Source: Octopus vulgaris (taxonomy: Eukaryota). Taken from it: a stretch of DNA of 64,000 bases. This document shows, in pieces, positions 2,013 to 62,199 of the stretch. The stretch lies in the NCBI GenBank assembly GCA_951406725.2, contig OX597821.1, forward strand, positions 54,622,001-54,686,000, written 5' to 3'. The position numbers and the translations under genes are program-made. The notes below the pieces were generated by a model. It worked only from the letters and a program-made list of their open reading frames with translations, did no database searches and was not told where the DNA came from. Position 1 is the stretch's first letter; each line of letters begins with the position of its first letter.

Positions 2013-2673
2013 GCACATACACACATATTTATGTAGGTAGATTCCTTCCCCTATTCCTTTCCCCCCACATCACTAAATCTTAGTCCAATACTCATTCCTC
2101 ACCAGCAACGCTGTTGCAACTATACTAGCATTCATTTGTCACACCCACATACATAAATACCAAAAGCATTTATATATGTGTGCATGTGTGTGTGTGTGAG
2201 TGTGTATACACACTCACACACACACATTTACATACACACCAGACATAAAAAACACATGCATGTATATATGTTCTTCCAGACAAACAGACACATGCCCATA
2301 CTCTCAGGCACATAAGCAAGAATGTGCATACTTACACATGTACACACACACATACACACACACATGCGAACACACACATCTATGCATGTATAATTCCCCT
2401 CTCTTCCCTCCTCCATCTATGCCACCAAATCTCACTACTGCCCGCCCCCCCCCCCCCTACCCAGCAGTGCAGTTGCAACTACACTAGCATACATACATCA
2501 CACTTGCACACATGAACACAAAAAGCATGACCGATGAAAATACACACATTCTCATCTGTTCTTCCAGTCAAACAGGCACACACTCTTATGTATACAGTTC
2601 TATATTTAAGAGATGAGGAATTATGTACATTATTTACATTTGACAGATATTTGTCCTCATTTAATTTGTTGTT

Positions 2674-2720
2674 AACACAACGTTTCGGCTGATATACCCT
2701 CCAGCCTTCAACAGATGTCT
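2674..2720 (-). ncRNA. Minimal type I hammerhead ribozyme motif (PLE-type)
   Basis: Minus strand agacat-CTGTTGA-A-GGCTG-gagggtatat-CAGCC-GAAACGTT-gtgtt. Stem I, stem II and palindromic ACGT in place of stem III are present. Core A6 is changed to U in this copy. Confidence 0.7.
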
Positions 2721-2997
2721 GGGGAAATTTCAAACCTGGGTTCTCAATCCTGAGGTATTTTTTGATGTTATTGTTGTTGTTATTATTATTAGTACTATTA
2801 TTATCATTATCATTATTATTATTAAGGTCACTGCCTGGAATCAAACTCGGAACCTTGGGGTTAGTAGCCAGTGCTCTTAACCACTACACCATATGCACAT
2901 GAGCATTTGGTGTAGTGGTTAAAAGTGCTGGCTACTAACCCCAAAATTCTGAGTTCAATTCCAGGCAGTGACCTTAATAATGATAACAATGATAATG

Positions 2998-3080
<83 letters not shown>

Positions 3081-3164
3081 AAGAAGAAGAAGAAGAAGAA
3101 GAAGAATAACAGCAACATCGAAAAATACCTTAGGGATGAGAACCCAGGTTCAAAATTTCCCCAA

Positions 3165-3208
3165 CTCATCTGATGAAGGATGGAGGGTGTATCAGCTGAA
3201 ACATGTTA
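3165..3208 (+). ncRNA. Minimal hammerhead motif, degenerate copy
   Basis: cat-CTGATGA-A-GGATG-gagggtgtat-CAGCT-GAAACA-tgtt, homologous to 2674-2720. Confidence 0.6.
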
Positions 3209-3649
3209 ACAACAAACAAGATGAGGACAAATATTCATCAAATGTAAATAATGTAAATAATATTCATATGTATATACACAAATGCATCAACCAATAACTC
3301 CCCATATCCATACAGTTATACATTTCGTATACGCACACTCCTACATACACATTCGCTGCCCCAGTTTCGGTCAGCTCCCGGACACCAAGATGCTATCAGT
3401 TTCCTATCCAGCCACACGATCCTGGAAATTCTCCTTCCTACCAAACCTGATGTTGCTGAATCGCTAATCTTACCCCTAACAACACCATATAATGCATCTT
3501 GACCAATAGCAGCCCATTTTCAATAAGTCATCTTCGATTTCCTGTGTTTCTCTATTCAGCCCAAATGAGAGAGGTTTCTTTTACAAGTCCACAAACCTTT
3601 AGTCACATTGAGCCTAGTCAAGTTGCTTTAAATAATAATAATAATATTG

Positions 3650-8780: not shown

Positions 8781-8810
<30 letters not shown>

Positions 8811-9461
8811 ACAAAATTAGAGAATGGAGAAACATACTTAAATCAATAAAACATCAACTATCCGATGATACTCAATCCATACTTTAATACACCATTACAT
8901 AGGAGTAAAGGCAATATATAAAATGAAATGAGATATACAGTAATAGTAAAAGTAAAAAGATAAAGAGATATAAGTAAAAAATTACAAATACAATATGCAA
9001 ATAAATCAAAACTGACAGCTGTTTCGGCAGTGAGGACAGTCATACCTCATTTAACCTATAAGCCATAAAGGCAGGTATAAATGAGGCATTAACAAAGATG
9101 CCCCACGGCCTCTTCAGAGAATTAAATTAAATTTGTTATAATAGTGAAAAATATTATATAATCATATACATATAAATATAAAAATATAAAAAAGTAAAAT
9201 ATAAAAACTTATACATCATAATGCTACACTTGTATAATATAATACACATTTGTACAAAAAGGAAGGTAACCAGAACAAAATAAAACAAAATATATAACAG
9301 TGTATATATAATATTAATAAGTACCGATATCATACATATTTAGCTAATAGTTTTTTTTATAAAAAAAAGGGCTAACCCATATGGAGATGAAAAATAATAA
9401 TAATTAAATCCGTGGTACAGTTCATAAAATTCTAAAGCTATAAAAGTTAATAAAAATTACT

Positions 9462-9501
<40 letters not shown>

Positions 9502-10430
9502 GTAATAATAATAAAAAATAATAATAATAATAAAAATAGATACAGTTAAGTTATCACCAAGTCCATCCTTCCAAGATCGAAATAACTATTATTATTATTA
9601 TTAATAGTAATTTTTATTAACTTTTATAGCTTTAGAATTTTATGAACTGTACCACGGATTTAATTATTATTATTTTTCATCTCCATATGGGTTAGCCCTT
9701 TTTTTATAAAAAAAACTATTAGCTAAATATGTATGATATCGGTACTTATTAATATTATATATACACTGTTATATATTTTGTTTTATTTTGTTCTGGTTAC
9801 CTTCCTTTTTGTACAAATGTGTATTATATTATACAAGTGTAGCATTATGATGTATAAGTTTTTATATTTTACTTTTTTATATTTTTATATTTATATGTAT
9901 ATGATTATATAATATTTTTCACTATTATAACAAATTTAATTTAATTCTCTGAAGAGGCCGTGGGGCATCTTTGTTAATGCCTCATTTATACCTGCCTTTA
10001 TGGCTTATAGGTTAAATGAGGTATGACTGTCCTCACTGCCGAAACAGCTGTCAGTTTTGATTTATTTGCATATTGTATTTGTAATTTTTTACTTATATCT
10101 CTTTATCTTTTTACTTTTACTATTACTGTATATCTCATTTCATTTTATATATTGCCTTTACTCCTATGTAATGGTGTATTAAAGTATGGATTGAGTATCA
10201 TCGGATAGTTGATGTTTTATTGATTTAAGTATGTTTCTCCATTCTCTAATTTTGTAGTATTAATTTACGGTAATATTATTACCCTTACCCATTTAATACA
10301 ATAGATGAACTGATTGCTTGACAATTTCTAACATCTATGTATTAATTTTGTTGGGTACCTATCTAGCAGTATATTGGATATATATTATCCCATGGTGGGT
10401 TGAATTTTCAACCCCTATCTCATTTTATAA
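8811..10430. mobile_element. Penelope-like non-coding element: ~670-bp near-perfect inverted repeat plus one-sided ~175-nt tail, inserted in (TA)n
   Basis: 8811-~9480 is the reverse complement of ~9587-10255 (identical 61-aa pseudo-ORF on both strands in the track; one 1-nt homopolymer indel noted). The right arm continues to ~10430. A fragment recurs at 30176-30270. Confidence 0.85.
9943..10060 (+). ncRNA. Hammerhead ribozyme motif with greatly extended stem II (inverse copy at ~9006-9123, minus strand)
   Basis: CTGAAGA (9949-9955), then GGCCGTGGGG...CCTCACTGCC enclosing ATGCCTCATTTA/TAAATGAGGTAT, then GAAACAGCTGTC (10041-10052) with palindromic ACAGCTGT stem III and GUC triplet. Confidence 0.7.
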
Positions 10431-12081: not shown

Positions 12082-12310
12082 TATTTTTATGTTTGTTTGT
12101 CTGTGTTTGTCCCCCGCCCCCCAACATTGCTTGACAACTGATGCTGGTGTATTTACGTCCCCATCACTTAGTGCTGTGGCAAGAGAGACCGATAGAATAA
12201 GTACTAGGCTTACAAAGAATAAGTCCTGGGGATCGATTTGCTCAACCAAAGACGGTGCTCCAGCATGGCCACAGTCAAATGACTGAAACAAATACAAGAA
12301 TAAAAGAATG
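11872..12310 (+). mobile_element. Full-length tRNA-derived SINE, family A (octopus-type, CORE-like domain, internal microsatellite)
   Basis: tRNA-like head gtggctgtgtggtaag...gggttcagtccc, ccttgggaaagt core, tail gtcaaatgactgaaac-aagaataaaag. Many copies in the window. Confidence 0.85.
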
Positions 12311-12341
12311 ATTCCTCATCTCTTAAATATAGAACTGTATA
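12311..12341 (+). mobile_element. Isolated 3' terminus of the tRNA/hammerhead element
   Basis: attcctcatctcttaaatatagaactgtata is the exact reverse complement of 2591-2621 and of the end at ~40298-40328. Confidence 0.7.
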
Positions 12342-13536: not shown

Positions 13537-14460
13537 TCATCATCATCGTTTAACGTCCGCTTTCCGCGCTAGCACGGGTTGGACGGTTTGACCGGGTCTG
13601 GGAAGCCAGGGGCCGCTCCAGGCTCCAGTCTGAATCTGGCAGAGTTTCTACGGCTGGATGCCCTTCCTAACGCCAACCACTCCGTGAGTGGATTGGGTGC
13701 TTTTTACGTGCCACCTGCACAGGGGCCGGAGGGTCCGGCATCGTCACGATCGGTTCGAGCATTTTAACGTGTCAGCGGCACGGGGGCAACGAGGTCCGGG
13801 GTACTTTGGGGATCGGGGTATTTTGGGGATCCAGGGTACTTTGGGGATCCGGGGTACTTTGGGGATCCGGGGTACTTAGAATGGGTAGGGGGTATGTGGA
13901 ATTGCTGCAGAAAGCAGCCCGGGTCTTTGTAGTCACAGCATATCTCCAGAGATCTCGGTCCTTCGCCATTGCCTCAGTGAGGCCCAATGCTCTGAGGTCA
14001 TGCTTGACCCCCTCATCCCATGTCTTCCTGGGTCTACCTCTCCCCTGATACCTTCAACCGTTTGGGAGTGGCACTTCTTCACACATCTCTCTTCATCCAT
14101 CCGCAGCACATGACCATACCATCGCAAGCGTCGCTCTTGCACACCACATCTGATGCTTCTTATATCCAGCATTTCTCTCAGGATACTTACACTCTGTTTT
14201 GCGTGCACACTGACACTACACATCCAGCGGATCATGCTAGCTTCATTTCTTTCAAGTCTACGCATGTCTTCTGCAGTCACAGCCCATGTTTCATTACCGT
14301 GAAGCATGGCAGTTCGCACACATGCATCATACAATCTACCTTTTGCTCTGAGGGAGAGGCCTTTTGTTGCCAGTAGGGGTAGGAGCTTTCTGAACTTTGC
14401 CCAGGCTATTCGTATTCTAGTGGTGATACTCTCTGTGCATCCACCTCCGCTACTAACTTG

Positions 14461-14463
<3 letters not shown>
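13537..14463 (-). mobile_element. 5'-truncated RTE-clade LINE (RT C-terminus plus 3' UTR), frameshifted, inserted in (TA)n
   Basis: Translation RIRIAWAKFRKLLPLL...LYDACVRTAMLHGNETW...RRLRWYGHVLRM, then GRPRKTW...AKDRDLWR. (GAT)n tail at 13537-13550; 20-bp tandem repeat at 13790-13880. Confidence 0.9.
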
Positions 14464-14540
<77 letters not shown>

Positions 14541-15081
14541 ATGAGGAGGATGTTTCAGTGAATACAACTGAAACAGCATAAAAATGTAAATGGCGTTTGT
14601 GTATTATACTAAATGCATATACATCATATAAAGAAATTGCGTTCTGCTTTTTTTATCTGAGAGAAAATCTCTTCATAGACATGTAGTATTAAAAACACAA
14701 TATATAACAAAGTGAAACAAAATATCATAGCAACATTGACTCGTGGCAATGCTAGACATGTTTCACCCTCCTTGGTGCTTGTCAGTAATATATATCCATT
14801 TGTCACATGTCCGTTTTCCATGCTAGCATGGGTTGTTTATTTTTATGACAAGTTATAAATAAAAATGATTTAAAATTAAACTGGAGGATTACTCAATATT
14901 TTTTTAGTAGAGTACATGTATATTGACTTTTACAAGGTAGTAGATGACAGCAATTCTGAAATTTTGGCTTGTTTGCCTTCAAGTATGATTATCTAAAAAC
15001 ACTTCCCCTTGAATATGTATGTCTTGTTTTTTGTTTGTATGAAACTGCTGTCATATAGGATGAAACAAATCCTGGGGTTCT

Positions 15082-17215: not shown

Positions 17216-17234
17216 ACAATATATATATATATAT

Positions 17235-17562
17235 ATATAAGGATTTTTTGCATAATAAGATAAAAAAACCAAGGTTGTATAGATATTAGAGCATTTATAG
17301 ATAGGTCTTACAGCTGTTTCTAGGATATTAAGACCTTCTATCCATAAATGCTCTAATATCTATACAGCCTTGGTTTTTAATCTTATTACACAAAAAATTC
17401 TTATATACACACACTGACATAGAACCAACATTGAACCCTTTATTCACAATATTACCGAATCTGGAACTTAACTATGGTCTGTCTATAGCACTTATTCAGT
17501 ATTACCTGACACCTTTGGGTCTCAATGACACCATTATCTCTTATAACCTCAACTTCTCGCTT
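17235..17562. mobile_element. Penelope-like hairpin-plus-tail insertion in (TA)n with half-hammerhead in the loop
   Basis: Arms ~17235-17310 / ~17329-17406. Loop reads GAAACAGCTGTA on the minus strand (17309-17320). About 150-nt unpaired tail. Confidence 0.7.
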
Positions 17563-20382: not shown

Positions 20383-22728
20383 CACTGATCAACAAAATTA
20401 AATGTATTACACTCATTATGAATGCAAACCAACATTTTAAGACTAATTTTTCATACTGATTTCAAAATTTCACTGTTTGTATGCAGTATATATCAGTTTT
20501 TCAGTAGATATGTATTTGTATATATGAAATCATTAATGTAGCTAATAAGTACATATCGTTTTAAGAAAGTAAATGAGTTTATTGGATTAAAAATCATCAC
20601 TCATTCTATAAAGAATGAATACACACAAAAATGGGTCAGACAAAAAACAGACAAAGTTAGAACAACAGAGTTAGAAACATTGTGATTTGGATTTCCTGCA
20701 GTGTTCCTGATTTGGTTGATTATGGTAAAGTGTCCAGCAATAGTCAGCCTGCATAATGTCATTCCAGAAGCCTTGATACTGCTTCTCCATAGCACTAATG
20801 TCCTGGTGAAATCTTTCACTATGTTCATCAGACACTGCTCCAAGGTTATCTGTGAAGAAATCCAGATGGGAGTCTAAGAAGAGAACTTTCAGTGACATAC
20901 GAAGAATATTTCAGAAGATTCTTGATGCCATCCTTGTAGTTCATTGCCTTCTTATTGCCAAAGAAATTCTCACAGATCCAATTGAAAGCATTGCAGGCAG
21001 CTCCAGTTCATCCAGTGCTGTCTTGAAGCTAACGTCTTTGTCGAACTCCAAATTAGAGAAGTACTCAAAGATACTCTCTTTCAACTTCGTCTGTGTGATT
21101 TTGAGAAACTTTTCTACAATATACTCAAACCCTCTGGCATTTCTCTTCCCTAGTGTCTTTACAAGCTGTTTCATCAGTCCAAGCTTTATGTGCAAAGGAG
21201 GCAACAGAGCATTATATGGATCTACAAGAAGTGTATTCTTGATGCTGGACAGTCCTATCTGGTACGATATTCTTGTCTGCCAATTTGATTCTGAATAATG
21301 CCTGTCAGTTGCCCGACAATCTCACAGACATAAGAAACAACAGTATTTTGTGAAATCTAACTGCATTCCCATTAAAATTCCAATGACTTTTAAATCTTCA
21401 CATATTTTCCATGAGTATCTTTCATAGGTAATGGCATGAAGTAAAGTTCCATATTCTCATGGTTCATGAAGATGAGCGAAATGTGCAACAGGAATGGAGG
21501 ACTTCAAATTACCATTATGGATAAGTACAGCTTTTAAACTTCGTTTTGAAGAGTCAATAAACAAACGCCAGTCTGCAGAACCATGATTTTGTGATAAACA
21601 TTCAAAAAGACAATCGATGCTACTGCAAAAGCAAAGGGGGCCTTTAACAGTAAAACGTGTTTGTAGAACCACATTTCTGTGCCAAAAATAGGTTATACAA
21701 GCACTGTGCTCTAGAAGATATTTCTCCTTAAGTCTTGATGTCAACAGTTCTGCTTTATCTTTTGAGAGGGATAGGTCTCTGACAAGTTCATTCAGTTCAG
21801 CTTGGGAAAATTTCTGAGGTTCAAAGCTATCGTCATCAACCACATAATCTTCCTCAGCAGCACTAACATGACAGTTAGCATCATCATCTGACGTTTCAAT
21901 ACCATCATCTGGTGGAACTGGAATTGGCAGGCTTCCATTGTGAGGCACAGGTTTCATTGTAGAATCCAAATTGGGATACACAATTTTGTATTTATTCTTC
22001 ATAAAAAATCTTGTGACACTTACTTTGCAAAATTAACAGTCATTAAAACTGCCTTTCAGTTCCCTCCATATCATTGGAGTGGCAAAAGGCATGGACTTCT
22101 TATAATTGAACCAGTTATGTATGCCATTTGAACAAGCTGAGCAGATTAAATGTGGTGCCCATAACTTTTCCTGATCTACAAGAGGTCAGTCAAAGTATTG
22201 CTTATAAATTTCTTGATCTCTGGTGTTATTGTACATTTTTGAGCTTTCACAATAAATTGTCCACAGACATAGCAAAACACCTCAGGATGATTACTATATT
22301 GTCTTGATATTGTTAATACTATAAAACAAGTAAGGAAATAAATACAAACGGTTATACTCATATTGAATTTGAGATGAGGAAATATTTCATCAGACCAATT
22401 ATGACTGGACAAGTTGAGATGTTGAAATACCTATTTCCTCAGACAAAATTTGATTGGTTAATTTAAGATGATGAAATAATACATAATAATGCAGCAATGA
22501 ATAATGTAGTTTATTTTAAAGGTATGTTTCAATGAGGTAAATGAAATACATGCGTACACTTCATTACTTGGAATTTCTGTATAATGCATGAGCTAAAACC
22601 AAAAAACTTTCTCATCTTGAAAAAAGTACGGGACGTCAAAATACTAATTGTATATTTGAAATCAGCATTAAAAACTACACTAAGTACACCTTGACATATG
22701 CTTGATAAAAAATACTTATTGATAGGTG
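20383..22728 (-). mobile_element. Chapaev3-type (CMC) DNA transposon, near full length, transposase disrupted
   Basis: ORF pieces HPEVFCYVCG, YPNLDSTMKPVPH, FSQAELNELVRDLSLSKDKAELL, WRLFIDSSKRSLKAVL, PPLHIKLGLMKQ, VSDEHSERFHQDI. CAC...GTG termini, TTA flanking both sides (TWA-type TSD), subterminal gatttcaaa/tttgaaatc. Confidence 0.88.
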
Positions 22729-27084: not shown

Positions 27085-27610
27085 TCTTGGACACTAAACT
27101 GCTTGTGAAGACCGGTTGGAGCAAGTAAAATCAAAATTGAACCAAATTCGATGACTGGCACCCGTGCCAGTGGAGCACTAACAGCTCCATCCGAGCAGGA
27201 TCACTGCCAGAGCAGCTGTCTGGCTTCTGTGCCGGTGGGCACATAAAAAGCACCATTTGAGCGTGATCATTACCAGTGTCGCCTTACTGGCACTTGTGCA
27301 GGTGGCACATAAACAAAACATTCGAGCGAGGTCATTGCCAGTGCAGCAGGACTGACTCTTGTGCAGGTGGCACTTAAAAAACACCATTTCGAGCATGGAT
27401 GTTGCCAGTACCACCAGACTGGCCCTCGTGCCGGTGGCATGTAAAAGCACCCACTACACTCTCAGAGTGGTTGGCATTAGGAAGGGCATCCAGCTGTAGA
27501 AACTCTGCCAGATCAGATCGGAGCCTGGTGCATCCATCTGGCTCGCCAGTCCTCAGTCAAATCGTCCAACCCATCCTAGCATGGAAAGCGGACGTTAAAG
27601 GATGATGATT
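27085..27610 (+). mobile_element. RTE 3' UTR copy with ~60-bp tandem subrepeats
   Basis: Five gtgc(c/a)(g/a)gtgg(c)ac..aaaa units, then the canonical tail ggacgttaaaggatgatga. Confidence 0.75.
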
Positions 27611-28189: not shown

Positions 28190-28232
<43 letters not shown>

Positions 28233-28236
<4 letters not shown>

Positions 28237-28444
28237 TCGTTTAACGTCCGCTTTCCATGCTACCATGGGTTGGACGATTTGACTGAGGTCTGGCAAACCA
28301 GATGGCTGCACCAGACTCTAATTTGAGCTGTAGAAAGTCTGCCAGATCAGATTGGAGCCTGGTGCAGCCACTGGTTCACCAGACTTCACTCAAATCGTCC
28401 AACCCATGCTAGCATGGAAAGCGGATGTTAAACAATGATGATGA
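28233..28444. mobile_element. Two RTE 3' ends joined head-to-head within (TA)n
   Basis: catcgtttaacgtccgctttccatgct... and ...agcatggaaagcggatgttaaacaatgatg form ~95-bp inverted arms. Confidence 0.8.
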
Positions 28445-28456
28445 TATATATATATA

Positions 28457-29929: not shown

Positions 29930-30162
29930 TATATATTAGAAGAAATGAGGTAATCAGAAGATCGGATGGTTTATATTTACAGATATTTATTTATATATTA
30001 TATTTTTTACATATATATCATATCATTTAGATCTAAATGATATGATATATATGTAAAAAATGTAATATATAAATAAATATCTGTAAATATAAACCATCCG
30101 ATCTTCTGATTACCTCATTTCTTCTAATATATAATACCTGTACATCATCTCCAAACCTTCCA
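29930..30162. mobile_element. ~100-bp-arm near-perfect palindrome plus ~30-nt tail in (TA)n (Penelope-like hairpin-plus-tail)
   Basis: Symmetry centre aga|tct at 30031/30032, no spacer. Unpaired tail atacctgtacatcatctccaaaccttcc. Confidence 0.75.
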
Positions 30163-30175
30163 ATATATATATATA

Positions 30176-30270
30176 TGTAATGGTGTATTAAAGTATGGAT
30201 TGAGTATCATCGGATAGTTGATGTTTTACTGATTTAAGTATGTTTCTCCATTCTCTAATTTTGTAGTATA
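30176..30270 (+). mobile_element. Fragment of the 8811-10430 element family
   Basis: Near-identical to 10167-10260. Confidence 0.85.
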
Positions 30271-36986: not shown

Positions 36987-37602
36987 TTAACTCTTTAGTA
37001 TTTAAACTGGCCACACCCAGCCAAAATATTCTATTTGTTTTATGTTCGAAGAGGCCAGATCTGGCCTCTCCCACTTACCCTACAATGTTGTTCAAAAAAA
37101 TAAACAATCACGTTATTGAAATTTTGAAGCTATGCTGATACTCTTTTACTTGTTTCAGTCATTTGACTGCAGCCATGCTGGAGCAATGCCTTTAGTCGTG
37201 CAAATCGACCCCAGAACTTATTCTTTGTAAGCCTAGTACTTATTCTATCTGTCTCTTTTGCCGAACCGCTAAGTTACGAGGACGTAAACACTCCAGCATC
37301 AGTTGTCAAATGATGTTGGGGGGACAAACACAGACATACAAACACACACACATATATATACACATAGATATATATACGACGGGCTTCTTTCAGTTTCCAT
37401 CTACCAAATCCACTCAGAAGGCTTTGGTTGGCCTGAGGCTATAGTAGAAGACACTTGCCCAAGGTGCCATGCAGAGGGACTGAACCCGGAACTATGTGGT
37501 TGGTAAGCAAGCTACTTACCACACAGCCACTCAATTAATTCAAAACAACGTGAATATTTTAGCGTTGTATTTGACAGTGTAATCTGAATGTTAAAAGGCT
37601 TA
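36987..37602 (+). mobile_element. piggyBac-type MITE interrupted by a family A SINE (37138-37531, minus)
   Basis: ttaactctttagtattta ... gtaatctgaatgttaaaaggctta with a full SINE inside. Confidence 0.7.
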
Positions 37603-38122
37603 CAAAAGCTATCCTACTTAGACTAAAAATGCTACTGCTGCACTGTAATCAAATATGCTTTTGGAGCAAAGTCCTTAAATTCCCAAAGGCCTCATTAGTT
37701 GCTACTTATAGGAACTCTATTACTCTATATTAACTACTTAAATCCTTCTCTCTCTCCTTCTCCTCACTCTGTCTCCTTCCCTCTATCTCCCCCTCTCTCT
37801 GTATCATTATTACTGTGTTTCCAATATCAACGAGGGAACAAGTGATCTTGTAATAGTCTGTCAACTTATTAAAAATAGCAACTAAATTTCCTTCAAATAA
37901 CACTCTAGTATATTAAATAAAGAAAGTTACTTTGAATAATGTAATCCCTAACATACAAAAATATGGGATCCTCAAAGATGGAATACAAGACGGGATAGTC
38001 ATGGATGGAATACAAAAAGATCTGATGATTATGGGTCTACAGAACCAGAACCAACACAAGACTAAACAACAGCGCCACTAACAACAACGACTTCAATTTC
38101 TCTAATTCTTTTATTTACTTCT

Positions 38123-38521
38123 TGCAGGAGTGGCTGTGTGGTAAGTAGCTTGCTTACCAACCACATGGTTCCGGGTTCAGTCCTACTGCATGACACCTTG
38201 GACAAGTGTCTTCTACTATAGCCTCAAGCCGACCAAAGCCTTGTGAGTGGATTTGGTAGACGGAAACTGAAAGAAGACCGTCGTATATATATGTGTGTGT
38301 CTGTGTGTGTGTGTATGTTGTGTATCTGTGGCTGTCCCCCCAACATCGCTTGACAACCGATGTTGGTGTGTTTAGGTCCCCATAACTTAGCGGTTCGGCA
38401 AAAGAGACCGATAGAATAAGTACTAGGCTTACAAAGAATAAGTCCTGGGGTCGATTTGATTTGACTAAAGATGGTGCTCCAGCATGGCTGTAGTCAAATG
38501 ACTGAAACAATTAAAAGAGTA
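38123..38521 (+). mobile_element. Full-length family A SINE
   Basis: High similarity to 11872-12310. Confidence 0.88.
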
Positions 38522-39937: not shown

Positions 39938-40301
39938 TAATGAACCCATTGGCCTCTTAACACTTATATTGCTGCACATATAGCACCTACCTTGAGATGA
40001 CACTATCCACAACACTTAGTCTTTTTTACCCAGGACATCAACCCTCTGGAATCACAAATCACTTCCCTTATTTGTCCTGGAGTCAACAATTTTCAAACAA
40101 CTCAAAATGAATATTAACTATGGTTGTCTCACCAGCCTTGGAAGAAGAGTCACAGTTAATGTTCTCTCCATTCCATACAATAACATGACTCATGATTCCA
40201 GAACTTCTAAATGGTTCAATAGAACATACTTTACTAGTTTTCTACTAGCGAACTCTGAACAAATCAATATGGAAATGATCCAGCAAGAAACCCTCTATAT
40301 A

Positions 40302-40797
40302 CAGTTCTATATTTAAGAGATGAGGAATTATGTACTTTATTTATATTATTTGTATTTGACAGATATTTGTCATCATCTTGTTTGTTGTTAACACAACACT
40401 TTGGCTGATATACCCTCCAACCTTCATCAAGTGTCTTGGGGAAATTTTGAACCTAAAGTATTTTTCGATGTTGTTGTTGTTGTTAATAACAATAGCAACA
40501 ACAACAACATCATATTCTTCCTAATATTAGATTTATAAGCCATAAAATTCACCCCATAATTGCCCACAGGCATATGGCGTAGTGGTTAAGAGTGCAGGCT
40601 CTAAACCGAAGATTCCAAGTTCGAATAATAATAATAATAACAGCAACAACAACAATAATGAAAAATACCTTAGGAATGAGAACCCAGGTTCGAAATTTCC
40701 CCAAAACACCTGATGAAGGCTGGAGGGTATATTAGCTGAAACATTATGTTAACAACAAACGAGATGAGGACAAATATCCATCTAATGTAAATATCGT
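40302..40797. mobile_element. Second inverted dimer of the tRNA/hammerhead element
   Basis: Minus arm 40302-~40490, plus arm ~40569-40797 with tRNA head and ACAC-CTGATGA-A-GGCTG..TAGCT-GAAACATT-ATGTT (40706-40750). TSD accctcta(t/c)ata at 40290-40301 / 40798-40809. Confidence 0.8.
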
Positions 40798-41137
40798 ACC
40801 CTCTACATAGTTGATTGATCTGATTGAAATAACAGCTATGAATCCTTCCTAACCACTCTCTGCCACCTTAAAAAAAATAAAGAGAGATACACTGATTGTT
40901 AGCAAGAAAAGGAATTAACAAGTGAGACTCTATATGGTCGCATGATTTGCTAGAAATAGTAGTGAAATCTTCTTCAAAATTACTTGCTATTATCTTAAAT
41001 AAGAAGTCTTAGATCAGAGTTGTATTGTTTCTAAACAACAACAATAAAACTTATCAAAAGAAAAACTTGCTTCATGAAAAGTCTCTGAAGTTAATATAAG
41101 ATATTTAGAATCAGAAATTGAGATAAAACTCTGTATA

Positions 41138-42453
41138 TGAGGGGGTCCCCAAAAGACAGAAATTTTGCATTATTTTATTCTCTTAGTTTTACATGTTTAC
41201 ACTTTTATTGCCTTCAAAGTATTCTCCATTTGAAGCAATGTATCAGTCCAGATATGTTTTCCACTATTTGAAGCCATCCCGAAACTCTTGTGAAGTGATG
41301 TTTTTTAATGCCTCCATTGTTTTTTTCTTCACCTTTTCCACATCTGCAAAACGTTCTCCTCTAAGGACTATTTTCATTCAGGGGAACAAAAAAAATGTCA
41401 CAGGGAGCAAGATCAGGCTAATAGGGAGGGTGGGTAAGTGAGGTCATGCCATTTTTGGAAAAAAATGTCACACACTCAAGTCAGTGTGCACAGGTGCATT
41501 GTCATGAAGAAACTACCACTCTCCACTTTGCTAAAGGTCAAATAATAAAATCACTCTCCACTTTGCTAAAGGTCAGGACATTTTCATTTGCACCATGTCT
41601 CACAAATGCTTCAGAACTGCCAAATAAAATGTCTAGTTAGCAGTTTGACCAGGAGGAGCAAATTCTGTGTGGACATTTCATTTTGCATCAATGAAACAAA
41701 TCAGCATTATTTTGACATTGGACTTCATTTGACATGCTTTTGGGTGGGGTGTGGTAACATTGAATGCTTCCATTGACTTGATTGCTGCTTTGTTTCCAAA
41801 TCATAGCCCTAGCACCAGCTTTCATCACAAGTGATGACCTTTGGAAAACAGCTCGGATTAACTTCCTACTGTTCTTTCAGTTCACGACACACATTCAGTC
41901 ATGAATGCTTTTGTTCTTCTGTGAGTGAGTGAGGTACAAATTTTGCAGCAGTTCTTTTCATTTGTAATTCCTCTCTCAAAATTCGTTGGCAAGAGCTCCA
42001 ATATACACCAGTCATAACAACAAGTTCGTCAATTGTTTGGGCGATGATCCTCTGAGATCAGTTAATTTTCGTGATGTTTTCATTTGTTCAGGAGGTTGAC
42101 AGATGCCCTGAATGAGGTTGGTTTACAAGTGACCATTTTTAAAGTGTGAAAACCACTAGTAAACTTGTGTTTTACTCATAGTAGTGTCCTTGTAATCTGT
42201 TTAAAGCATGACAACTGTTTCAGCCACTGTTTTCCCCAGCAGAAAACAGAAATTCACAGAAGCACAAATTGCTGAACAGGGCAGAAGCACTTCAAAACAA
42301 AACACACCATGTGGCGGTACAACTTCACTCAATGCAACCGGTTGGCAGACTGATGCCTGAGGGTAGCATCAAGTGGCTTCTTGCAGTGGAAGCCTGAACT
42401 ACAATGAGCTTGTCCACAGAGAACGTTTCTGGTTACTTTTGGGTATCCCCTTG
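41138..42453 (-). mobile_element. Full-length (~1.3 kb) decayed mariner
   Basis: TA-flanked TIRs tgagggggtccccaaaag / cttttgggtatccccttg. Minus-strand LTHPPY*PDLAPCD and LRGERFADVE around 41330-41440. Confidence 0.85.
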
Positions 42454-47229: not shown

Positions 47230-47885
47230 TATTTATTTCAGTCATTGGACTGCGGCCATGTGGGAGCACCTCGTCGAAGGGTTCAGTCAAACAAAGCTAC
47301 CTCAAGTACTTATTTTTGAAGCTTGTACTTACTCTATAGGTCACTTTTGCTAACATAAACAAACTAACTGAAGCTCCGGCGTCTGGCGACGGACTTGGTA
47401 AACACCCACAAAGTTATCAACCACCTCACCAACAACAACACTGAACACCTTTTTGATCTCCATGTGTCCAACACACGTGGACATGCCTACAAAGTCAGAA
47501 AACAACACAGCTCCCATGACTTTCGGAAACATTTTTTCACGCTCAGAGTTGCTGAAGCATGGAATAAACTGCCTGCGTCAGTTGTTGACTGCCATGGCAC
47601 TGCATCCTTTAAGGCCCTCATGCTTTCCGAAATCCGCCGAAACTACACCTGATTATATATACACTTTAGATGAGTTGTAGTGCACCTGAGCACTGTACAC
47701 AATTATTATTATTATAACACAGGTTGTCAAGTGGTGGTGGAGGACACACACACACAACACACATAAATGAGCGCGCACGGTGGGCTTCTTTCAGTTTTCT
47801 TCAACCAAATCCACAAGGCTTCAGTCGATCTGAAGCTGTAGTAGAAGTCACTTGCCCAAGGTGCCGCACGGTGGAATTGAACTAA
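47230..47885 (-). mobile_element. Family A SINE interrupted by a CR1 fragment
   Basis: SINE halves at ~47230-47368 and ~47715-47885. Confidence 0.7.
47369..47714 (+). mobile_element. 5'-truncated CR1/L2-group LINE 3' end
   Basis: LRRLATDLVNTHKVI...NTRGHAYKVRK...RKHFFTLRVAEAWNKLP..VV...FK, then (ATT)n tail. Confidence 0.88.
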
Positions 47886-60628: not shown

Positions 60629-61040
60629 TCTCTTTTACTCTTTACTCTCTTTACTTGTTTCAGTCATTTGACTGCGGCCATGCTGGAGCACCGCTTTTTG
60701 TCGAGCAAATTGACCCCGAGACTTATTCTTTGTAAGCCCAGTACTTATTCTATCGGTCTCTTTTGCCGAACTGCTAAGTGACGGGGACGTAAACACACCA
60801 GCATCGGTTGTCAAGCAATGCTAGGGGGACAAACACAGACACACAAATATATACACACACATACATATATATATAAATACATATATACGATAGGCTTATT
60901 TCAGTTTCCGTCTACCAAATCCACTCACAAGGCATTGGTCGGCCCGAGGCTATAGCAGAAGACACTTGCCCAAGATGCCACGCAGTGGGACTGAACTCGG
61001 AACCATGTGGTTGGTAAGCAAGCTACTTACCACACAGCCA
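60629..61040 (-). mobile_element. Young full-length family A SINE
   Basis: (ctctttta)n tail, CpG-rich body, head ttaccacacagcca. Confidence 0.9.
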
Positions 61041-61738
61041 ATTGTTTTGTTTTTTTTTCTTTCAGGGTTGATTAAATATAGTCCCAGTCAAGAACTGAGG
61101 CCAAGGCATTGACTAGTCTTTCTACTCGAAATTGCTGATCAGGAACCATTGATTTCATAGTGAATAGCTTCAGTAAATCAGCTTTTGTTGCTAATGTACT
61201 GGAAAGAGAGAAGAACAAATTCTCTGTTTTGTCCTCTGCTGATATCATTCTCATAACTAATTTATTTAAAATAAATAGTCATGTTTAAAAATATGTGAGC
61301 AGGTAGACTGGAGCATGTAGAAGCTGTGTAAGTTGTCAAGTCTTCTGAAATTCTCTTACAAAATCTACAGGCAGCTAACTAATAAGCCAGGTGAAAATGA
61401 TGGCAGCAGTGAGAGCAACAGAGACAATGGCATTTGCAGCACTGGCAGCTACAGTTACAGTAGCAGTGGTGGTAGTTAATTCTATAAAGTTTGCTCTCAG
61501 CTTGTCAATCTATTGCAAATGTTCACATACAAGGGTTCAAGAGGAACAAAATTGACAACAATCTTAATATAGGAAGGCCTGCAAGAACCATGGACATTGT
61601 CCCTTCCTCTAGATCCAGCAAGTAAAAAGAAAACTGCTTCATATAATATGTATGATATACATAAAGTACTATAGATTTCAGCTAATGCTACAACTATAAA
61701 TTAAACTTATTTAAATAAGATATACTATATATTATAAG

Positions 61739-62040
61739 CGTAGGAGTGGTTGTGTCGTAAGTAGCTTGCTTACCAACCACATGGTTCCAGGTTCAGTCCC
61801 ATTGTGTGGCACCTTGGGCAAGTGTCTTCTACTATAGCTTCAGGCCGACCAAAACCTTGTAAGTGGATTTGGTAGACGGAAACTGAAAGAAGCCTATCTA
61901 TATGTGTGTGTATATGTTTGTTCCCCCAACATCGCTTGACAACCGATGCTGGTGTGTTTATGTCCCCCATAATTTAGCAGTTCGGCAAAAGAGACCAATA
62001 GAATAAGTACTAGGCTTACAAAGAATAAGTCCTGGGGTCA
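61739..62040 (+). mobile_element. 3'-truncated family A SINE
   Basis: Matches 38123-38450. Confidence 0.85.
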
Positions 62041-62199
62041 ATAAAATGAAGTACAATTCATGTACTGGTGGGGTCAATGAAATTGACTAACCAACTCCTC
62101 TTAAAATTGTTGGCCTTATGCAAAAATCTGAAAACATTATCATTATTATCATATAATTGTTCAATATTTGGTAGTTTGGGGCAAATTTCTACTGTATCA

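Follow-up and report, generated by a model that had tools for sequence, protein, structure and literature searches.

An insertion at 40290-40809 of the window (the whole 64,000-nucleotide stretch of Octopus vulgaris DNA that was analysed) consists of a tailed arm on the minus strand and a tailless arm on the plus strand within a single target duplication. We consider it probable that two copies of one short non-coding element stand head to head here. The element is likely a Pol III SINE whose 3' end is that of a Penelope-like element (PLE), and a PLE protein likely placed both copies in a single event. The inversion most likely formed at integration, as the first-pass annotation had proposed, because one duplication brackets both arms in two of two insertions, inverted arms of many lengths in other copies join the same head position, and the layout is the one published for PLEs. 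That annotation had the structure right but missed the hammerhead motif, the tRNA-type boxes and the PLE connection, and so took a known architecture as unexplained.

Table 1. Features of the two insertions and of the tail-only stub, in window coordinates
Feature	Position	Strand	Basis or remark
First insertion, full-length tailed arm (tail 2591-2625)	2591-2898	-	duplication TATGTATA at 2587-2594
First insertion, full-length tailless arm, head-to-head join	2901-3260	+	duplication TATGTATA at 3267-3274
Tail-only stub adjoining 3' end of an unrelated SINE-like family	12311-12341	+	31/31 identical to last 31 nt of tail
Left target duplication copy	40290-40301		40290-40297 perfect 8-mer; 40298-40301 common to element 3' end
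35-nt 3' tail, this arm only; distal fixed end	40298-40332	-	alignment; loose-end pile at 40298-40302
Tailed-arm body, 5'-truncated inside (AAC)n; 14-nt internal deletion	40333-40484	-	blastn; four-arm alignment
Minimal type I hammerhead motif, decayed, with mutations in its core	40390-40435	-	motif scans
27-nt (AAT/AAC)-type piece	40485-40511	+	truncated-arm fold-back or the leader's own microsatellite; masked as repeat in contig mapping
5' leader (the earlier 'filler')	40512-40567	+	40524-40564 multi-copy in contig mapping
Near-palindrome over head start; 5-bp arms, 2-nt centre	40561-40572		perfect with majority G at 40568
tRNA-like head	40568-40626	+	A box 40575-40585, B box 40619-40626, spacing 44 nt; no cloverleaf called
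Plus-arm (AAT)n/(AAC)n microsatellite	40624-40659	+	sequence
Minimal type I hammerhead motif	40705-40750	+	CTGATGA and GAAAC boxes intact, cleavage triplet decayed
Remainder of tailless arm to proximal fixed end	40751-40797	+	alignment; loose-end pile behind 40793
Right target duplication copy	40798-40809		first 2 nt fit the element too

A blastn search of the window with 40250-40850 returned 2591-3268 and matches of 31-44 nt at 12299-12341. The arms at 40298-40488 and 40623-40799 aligned to 2591-2785, 2625-2799 and 3083-3250 with 75-84% identity (E 1e-30 to 1e-50), which bears out the earlier assignment of both insertions to one family. The element is about 300 nt long and non-coding, and an arm runs 5' to 3' from a head with A and B boxes through an (AAT)n/(AAC)n stretch, a spacer of about 45 nt and a hammerhead motif, followed by 53 nt to the tailless end and then the 35-nt tail. 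In the four-arm alignment of the two insertions, both minus arms continue through the tail and both plus arms lack it, again as first described, and the tail at 40298-40332 is identical to 2591-2625 at 35 of 35 positions.

In the available text of PMC8557442, PLE insertions have at their 5' end an adjoining copy that is inverted and 5'-truncated, as well as a tail of 30-40 bp that is often present at one end only; their target duplications are variable and their targets biased to (TA)n. Here the inverted 5'-truncated copy adjoining the 5' end was found by blastn, in the alignment and in the joints described below, and the tail of 35 nt is confined to one arm in two of two insertions; the one-tailed inverted architecture is thus the known PLE signature. 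The element is also short, non-coding, abundant and bracketed by a target duplication, as a SINE is.

The target duplication at 40290-40809 reads ACCCTCTATATA at 40290 and ACCCTCTACATA at 40798 and matches at 11 of 12 positions, or at 8 of 8 if the last four bases are counted as those of the element. Because 40298-40301 are also the element end, the 12 bp with one mismatch first reported, although recovered, are indistinguishable from a perfect 8 bp plus a 3/4 match to that end. In a control with two 30-nt windows placed 508 nt apart, where a match need not abut the element ends, 3 of 1152 random pairs free of low complexity gave a 12-mer with at most one mismatch (9 of 1500 when all pairs are counted), and 17 of 1145 such pairs gave a perfect 8-mer. 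The left duplication copy of the first insertion likewise ends in the last four bases of the element, so that both targets match these bases, 4/4 at 2584-3274 and 3/4 at 40290-40809, which suggests pairing at priming or merely a taste for TA-rich DNA. This match counts against our reading in one respect, as it is unlike the anole PLE, for which the available text of PMC11167929 reports no homology between the cut DNA and the start site. The same text states that the anole PLE does not need ribozyme cleavage.

Divergence between the arms of one insertion was 13.8% in one case and 18.8% in the other, compared with 10.8-15.2% between insertions; arms of the same insertion are thus no closer to each other, which counts against our reading. 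A 9-nt duplication before the tail also differs between the arms of one insertion. Such differences would fit two template RNAs, or else an old insertion with slippage. The tail showed no difference in 70 nt (101 nt with the stub), against 30 of 503 non-CpG sites in the body (Fisher p 0.005 with the stub, in a post hoc test in which the stub itself had been found through its tail match). The body rate is approximately 5-6% per copy, or about 5% if three columns that probably also reflect CpG decay are dropped. Identity of the tail would fit a constraint on it in the source copies. A target duplication was looked for around the stub at 12311-12341 and not found.

Contigs of four out of 24 sequencing runs (X1, X2, X5 and X7, one per coded organism) were placed on 39950-41150 at 80% likeness. 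Between 18,328 and 29,696 contigs were placed per run, and summed depth was about 30-56 on the left flank (none over most of it in X5) and mostly 1e5-6e6 on the arms, neither figure being a copy number. The family is very abundant. Loose ends of the tail, with unrelated AT-rich flanks, lay at 40298-40302 (at least 624, 679, 610 and 623 in X1, X2, X5 and X7, respectively), and proximal loose ends lay behind 40793 (at least 148, 186, 170 and 166), where about 14 more family letters are followed by unrelated sequence. As both piles occur in four of four runs, the family has two fixed 3' ends with a tail of about 35 nt between them. Two earlier claims are modified accordingly. The common 3' end holds for the stub, which is tail throughout, whereas the family-wide end is fixed within about 4 nt and not to one base; and the fixed ends support defined priming, although at two sites, the tail being the stretch between them, and not at a single tail.

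Ten of the 15 joints listed (out of 327) link the minus arm, cut at 40323-40397, to the head start at 40560-40571, and in a second junction listing 8 of the 12 listed rows reach 40560-40571 from the minus arm, whose departure points over both listings span 40323-40425. The other joints among the 15 comprise two between two truncated arms, two that switch strand at homologous places and one internal skip. Exact joint positions are soft, given sides of only 20-41 nt and several cut points that fall where this copy is itself mismatched. A pile of joints at 40394-40397, the predicted ribozyme cut, was considered as cleavage evidence and set aside, as it coincides with mismatches of this copy at 40398-40402.

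These joints bear on whether the pair arose from two separate insertions or from a later fold-back rearrangement, either of which we regard as very improbable. PLEs do have a tendency to land within or next to copies already present (PMC6765202, in the text available), the two arms differ by the 18.8% given above and in the 9-nt duplication, and no flank-to-flank joint, such as an empty site would give, was present among the 15 joints and 12 rows listed. However, one duplication brackets both arms in each insertion, with none between them, and many other copies carry the same join; a recent fold-back would, moreover, have left the arms nearly identical. Still less credible, and already largely refuted, is the movement of a preformed palindrome as a fold-back DNA transposon (MITE). 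It would account for the overall inverted-repeat shape and the AT-rich targets, but not for unequal ends with a one-sided tail, a centre that varies between copies, a duplication that differs in length and sequence, or the existence of a tail-only stub.

At this locus, the left junction is crossed by contigs of X1, X2 and X7, which enter the tail by 18-26 nt, and the right junction by contigs of X1, X2 and X5, which pass it by 25-28 nt. Both overlaps fall below the 31 nt set as the bridging criterion and give only a hint that the insertion is common to organism D, where the flank is about 6.5% different. Contigs of X1 and X2 agree fully with the left flank. The right flank (40811-41128) differs from the X1, X2 and X5 contigs at 14-16 letters plus 19-24 gap letters, a mismatch attributable to another haplotype, a paralogous flank or an assembly error.

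The A and B boxes of the head are 44-45 nt apart in three of three heads, and no other such pair occurs in the window under the pattern used, which was written with the heads already known. The head may resemble tRNA-Arg. Rfam returned neither a tRNA in the head nor a hammerhead, queries of 701, 851, 82 and 81 nt giving only hairpin-type matches below the gathering score, and ARAGORN found no tRNA gene in the whole window. A single call from a relaxed ARAGORN run (65%, with a different fold) was rejected as tRNA evidence, given that 46 of 300 shuffles reached that level. A blastn search of the head against phages gave two chance matches only.

Between the end of the truncated tailed arm at about 40484 and the head at 40568 lies a gap of 83 nt, made up of 27 nt of microsatellite and 56 nt of other sequence. 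The first-pass annotation had placed a filler of about 70 nt here; the 5' truncation stands, while the filler is longer and largely a multi-copy 5' leader, not a locus-specific sequence. Summed depth over 40524-40564 was 4e4-5e5, against about 30-56 in the flank, and position 40553 was covered by 103-118 contigs per run at 0.42-0.58 of the depth at 40568. Within the window there is no second copy of the leader beyond a 13-nt match to the element at 8806-10260, which was taken as chance and not as homology. The idea that the leader is a decayed inverted head was discarded, no high-depth gap being listed there in the contig mapping. At 40568, 72-86% of the contig depth is G, and with G the segment 40561-40572 becomes a palindrome with 5-bp arms over the head start. 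The centre of the first insertion (2897-2902) is compatible with a join at this head palindrome after decay.

That about half of the head depth continues into the leader is not predicted by a plain SINE and counts against our reading. It keeps alive a rather unlikely alternative in which a longer PLE, autonomous or not, once took up a tRNA-like piece in its repeat and the arms are its 5'-truncated pseudo-LTRs, so that the head marks a hairpin stop of the reverse transcriptase (RT) and not a Pol III start; the insertion mechanism would be the same and the element would not be a SINE. Apart from a multi-copy leader at 42-58% of head depth, the palindrome at the head start would be able to stall an RT, and short non-autonomous PLEs are known (PMC8557442 and PMC6685494, in the text available). 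On the other hand, the junctions cluster within 12 nt at the expected tRNA gene start, 7 nt before the A box, the spacing of the boxes is kept in all three heads, and no ORF-bearing extension was found. We retain the Pol III SINE with a PLE 3' end as the preferred reading.

Minimal hammerheads of PLEs, as given in the available text of PMC4209133, have a 5-bp helix I, a 6-bp helix II starting from G-C, one unpaired base before helix II and a palindromic C-G in place of helix III, and can occur in pairs, one motif per strand, at a distance of 100-700 bp. The majority sequence of the four arms has CTGATGA, then a single unpaired A, a 6-bp helix II that begins with G-C, GAAAC with GTT directly after it, and a 5-bp helix I; it shows all four of these traits, including the palindromic C-G that replaces helix III. 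Every single arm has lost part of the motif, so that the intact form exists in the majority only; a strict scan for an intact ribozyme gave no match in any single arm and one match in 30 shuffles, and free folding of single arms was no better than that of shuffles (z -1.0 to +1.1). An intact ribozyme in the majority only, together with the Rfam and ARAGORN negatives, counts against the preferred reading.

Twin priming of the L1 type inverts the 5' part of a single copy, without duplicating its 3' end. An ordinary LINE-dependent SINE inverted in this manner would have the tRNA-type head seen here and likewise one duplication around the inversion, and SINEs and LINEs abound in octopus genomes (PMC13282606, in the text available). 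This origin is nonetheless highly improbable for the present pair, in which both arms hold the 3' body, the 3' end is unique and followed by unrelated flanks with no poly(A) or simple repeat, and a PLE-type hammerhead motif and a one-sided tail are present.

A fuller reading, which we put forward tentatively, is that the element is a SINE of a type not yet described, which has a tRNA promoter, parasitises PLEs and not LINEs and has reached a very high copy number in octopuses. Two separate RNAs of it would be copied by a PLE dimer, with priming on both strands of the target from two start sites, and the element would rebuild its own head-to-head dimer at every insertion by means of its self-complementary 5' end. 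Of the preferred reading, the anatomy, the abundance, both fixed 3' ends and the concentration of junctions near the head have been observed. For the anole PLE, the available text of PMC11167929 describes a protein, predicted to be a dimer, that cuts and extends both strands and prefers AT-rich DNA, and an RT that starts at two adjacent internal sites downstream of the hammerhead with the tail between them, sites to which the two fixed ends of the octopus family correspond; the insertion steps after priming are described there as unvalidated.

In the preferred reading of the octopus element, Pol III would transcribe outward from the tRNA-type head, with some templates starting further upstream and taking in the leader, as the plus arm at 40290-40809 may have done. 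A PLE protein with RT and GIY-YIG endonuclease would bind the hammerhead-to-tail region and nick each strand of an AT-rich target at sites 8-12 nt apart. One nick would prime at the distal site, the tail end, and yield the tailed arm, and the other would prime at the proximal site and yield the tailless arm. The two cDNAs would grow towards each other and join head to head, at the short head palindrome if both are complete (as may have happened at 2584-3274) or wherever one stopped early (at 40290-40809, presumably inside the microsatellite), and gap filling would create the target duplication. A distal cDNA that halts at the proximal site could leave a tail-only stub such as 12311-12341.

An autonomous partner was sought through the proteins related to the element and none was found, which counts against the preferred reading. 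An ORF with RT and GIY-YIG endonuclease is absent from either insertion, none of six window ORFs tested was recognised as a PLE ORF, Pfam matched none of nine queries, and exact-pattern scans of metagenome, viral and prokaryote collections returned nothing. In several copies, the segment from hammerhead to tail (2593-2766, minus strand; P0001) can be read as an open frame of 40-58 codons, and UniRef lists it as an uncharacterised Octopus bimaculoides protein. The hammerhead-tail translation matched this 51-aa protein with 73% identity (E 2e-13), which places the family in octopuses. The 22 protein matches to the frame (51-179 aa) included no RT and read as translations of this or related repeats, and no longer proteins matching it were found. 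This frame is probably spurious and possibly a remnant of the start of a partner's ORF. Ten of the predicted proteins (P0003, P0005-P0009, P0012, P0013, P0019 and P0021) contain a unit of about 40 residues, related to the segment from the hammerhead to the end, in 2-3 head-to-tail copies; those whose source was traced come from ENA contigs. They suggest that another genome holds tandem arrays of a related element.

Inverted architecture is common across the window, an AT-rich piece of animal DNA with many microsatellites: at least four further inverted insertions lie in (TA)n, one of them with a different hammerhead motif. A younger one, at 8806-10260, is 96% self-complementary with 572-nt arms at 99%, has a hammerhead-like motif at 9949 (+) and 9117 (-) with a long helix II and a palindromic helix III, has its left end in (TA)n and may carry a tail on the right arm; a 3' fragment of the same family lies in (TA)n at 30177-30267. 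At 29930-30133, a 204-nt palindrome, 99% perfect and in (TA)n, has about 29 extra nt on the right side only, in the manner of a tail, and a further family is represented by an 82% palindromic insertion in (TA)n at 17234-17407. An inverted pair (86%) of another SINE-like family at 28218-28456, which has a single copy at 27509-27606, has (ATC)n ends that point outward into (TA)n, and a relaxed scan found no hammerhead in it. The abundant SINE-like family found just before the stub at 12311 also forms inverted pairs, at 37139-38521 and 60709-62042, whose copies stand 600-700 nt apart. ORF remnants at 13933-14652 (-), 47368-47652 (+) and 20941-22032 (-), without a Pfam match, we take to resemble LINE reverse transcriptase ends and a transposase.

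The architecture is already known and the tRNA-headed PLE passenger is probably new. A short and very abundant passenger, which assembles more easily than full PLEs, offers thousands of natural end products of insertion, in which the tail side, the truncation points, the microhomology at junctions and the duplication length are countable and would test priming on both strands and the use of one RNA or two. The SINE concept would extend from LINE to PLE partners if the Pol III head works. For annotation, translations of this element are already in protein databases, and inverted pairs, if transcribed, would form double-stranded RNA.

Three tRNA-derived SINEs of octopus were reportedly described by Ohshima and Okada in 1994 and, by description alone, share the tRNA-type head and the host group. 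The present family could be one of these three, or a Repbase or Dfam entry, with the PLE link unnoted, and SINEBase or the octopus repeat libraries may already contain it. An element with a tRNA-type head, a PLE tail and an inverted insertion was not found in the literature searched, and the available text of PMC13282606, PMC8967140, PMC4824008, PMC8969392, PMC3899998, PMC3681739 and PMC5786205 holds no such element. Within the same limits, OR1 is a CORE-SINE (PMC4824008), and active octopus SINE families are mostly unclassified (893 of 900; PMC13282606, Table 1).

GIY-YIG PLEs (Penelope/Poseidon and Neptune), as portrayed in the available text of PMC8557442 and PMC11167929, are alike in the inverted truncated copy, the one-end tail, a minimal hammerhead upstream of two fixed 3' ends, the variable duplication and the AT-rich targets. 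The octopus element differs from them in its length of about 300 nt, without RT or endonuclease, in its tRNA-type A and B boxes and in having no head-to-tail partial tandem in the window. Non-autonomous PLEs, namely the Chlamys-type MRC1 of Chlamydomonas (PMC8557442) and a short Penelope of Heliconius (PMC6685494), are likewise short and non-coding with PLE 3' features, whereas the text available from these two sources describes no tRNA-derived head for either; MRC1-type elements form head-to-tail arrays, and most Chlamys elements are without hammerheads (PMC8557442, same text). In the SINE-like SM-alpha and Sj-alpha elements of Schistosoma and the metazoan retrozymes, a Pol III-type promoter is likewise followed by a hammerhead (PMC6765202 and PMC7761336, in part), and PLEs have been proposed as the mobilisers of metazoan retrozymes (PMC7761336, in part). 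As far as the same two sources extend, these elements form tandems in head-to-tail order, have active ribozymes and require a pair of units for propagation, whereas the octopus element is arranged head to head and combines a minimal PLE-type motif with a PLE tail.
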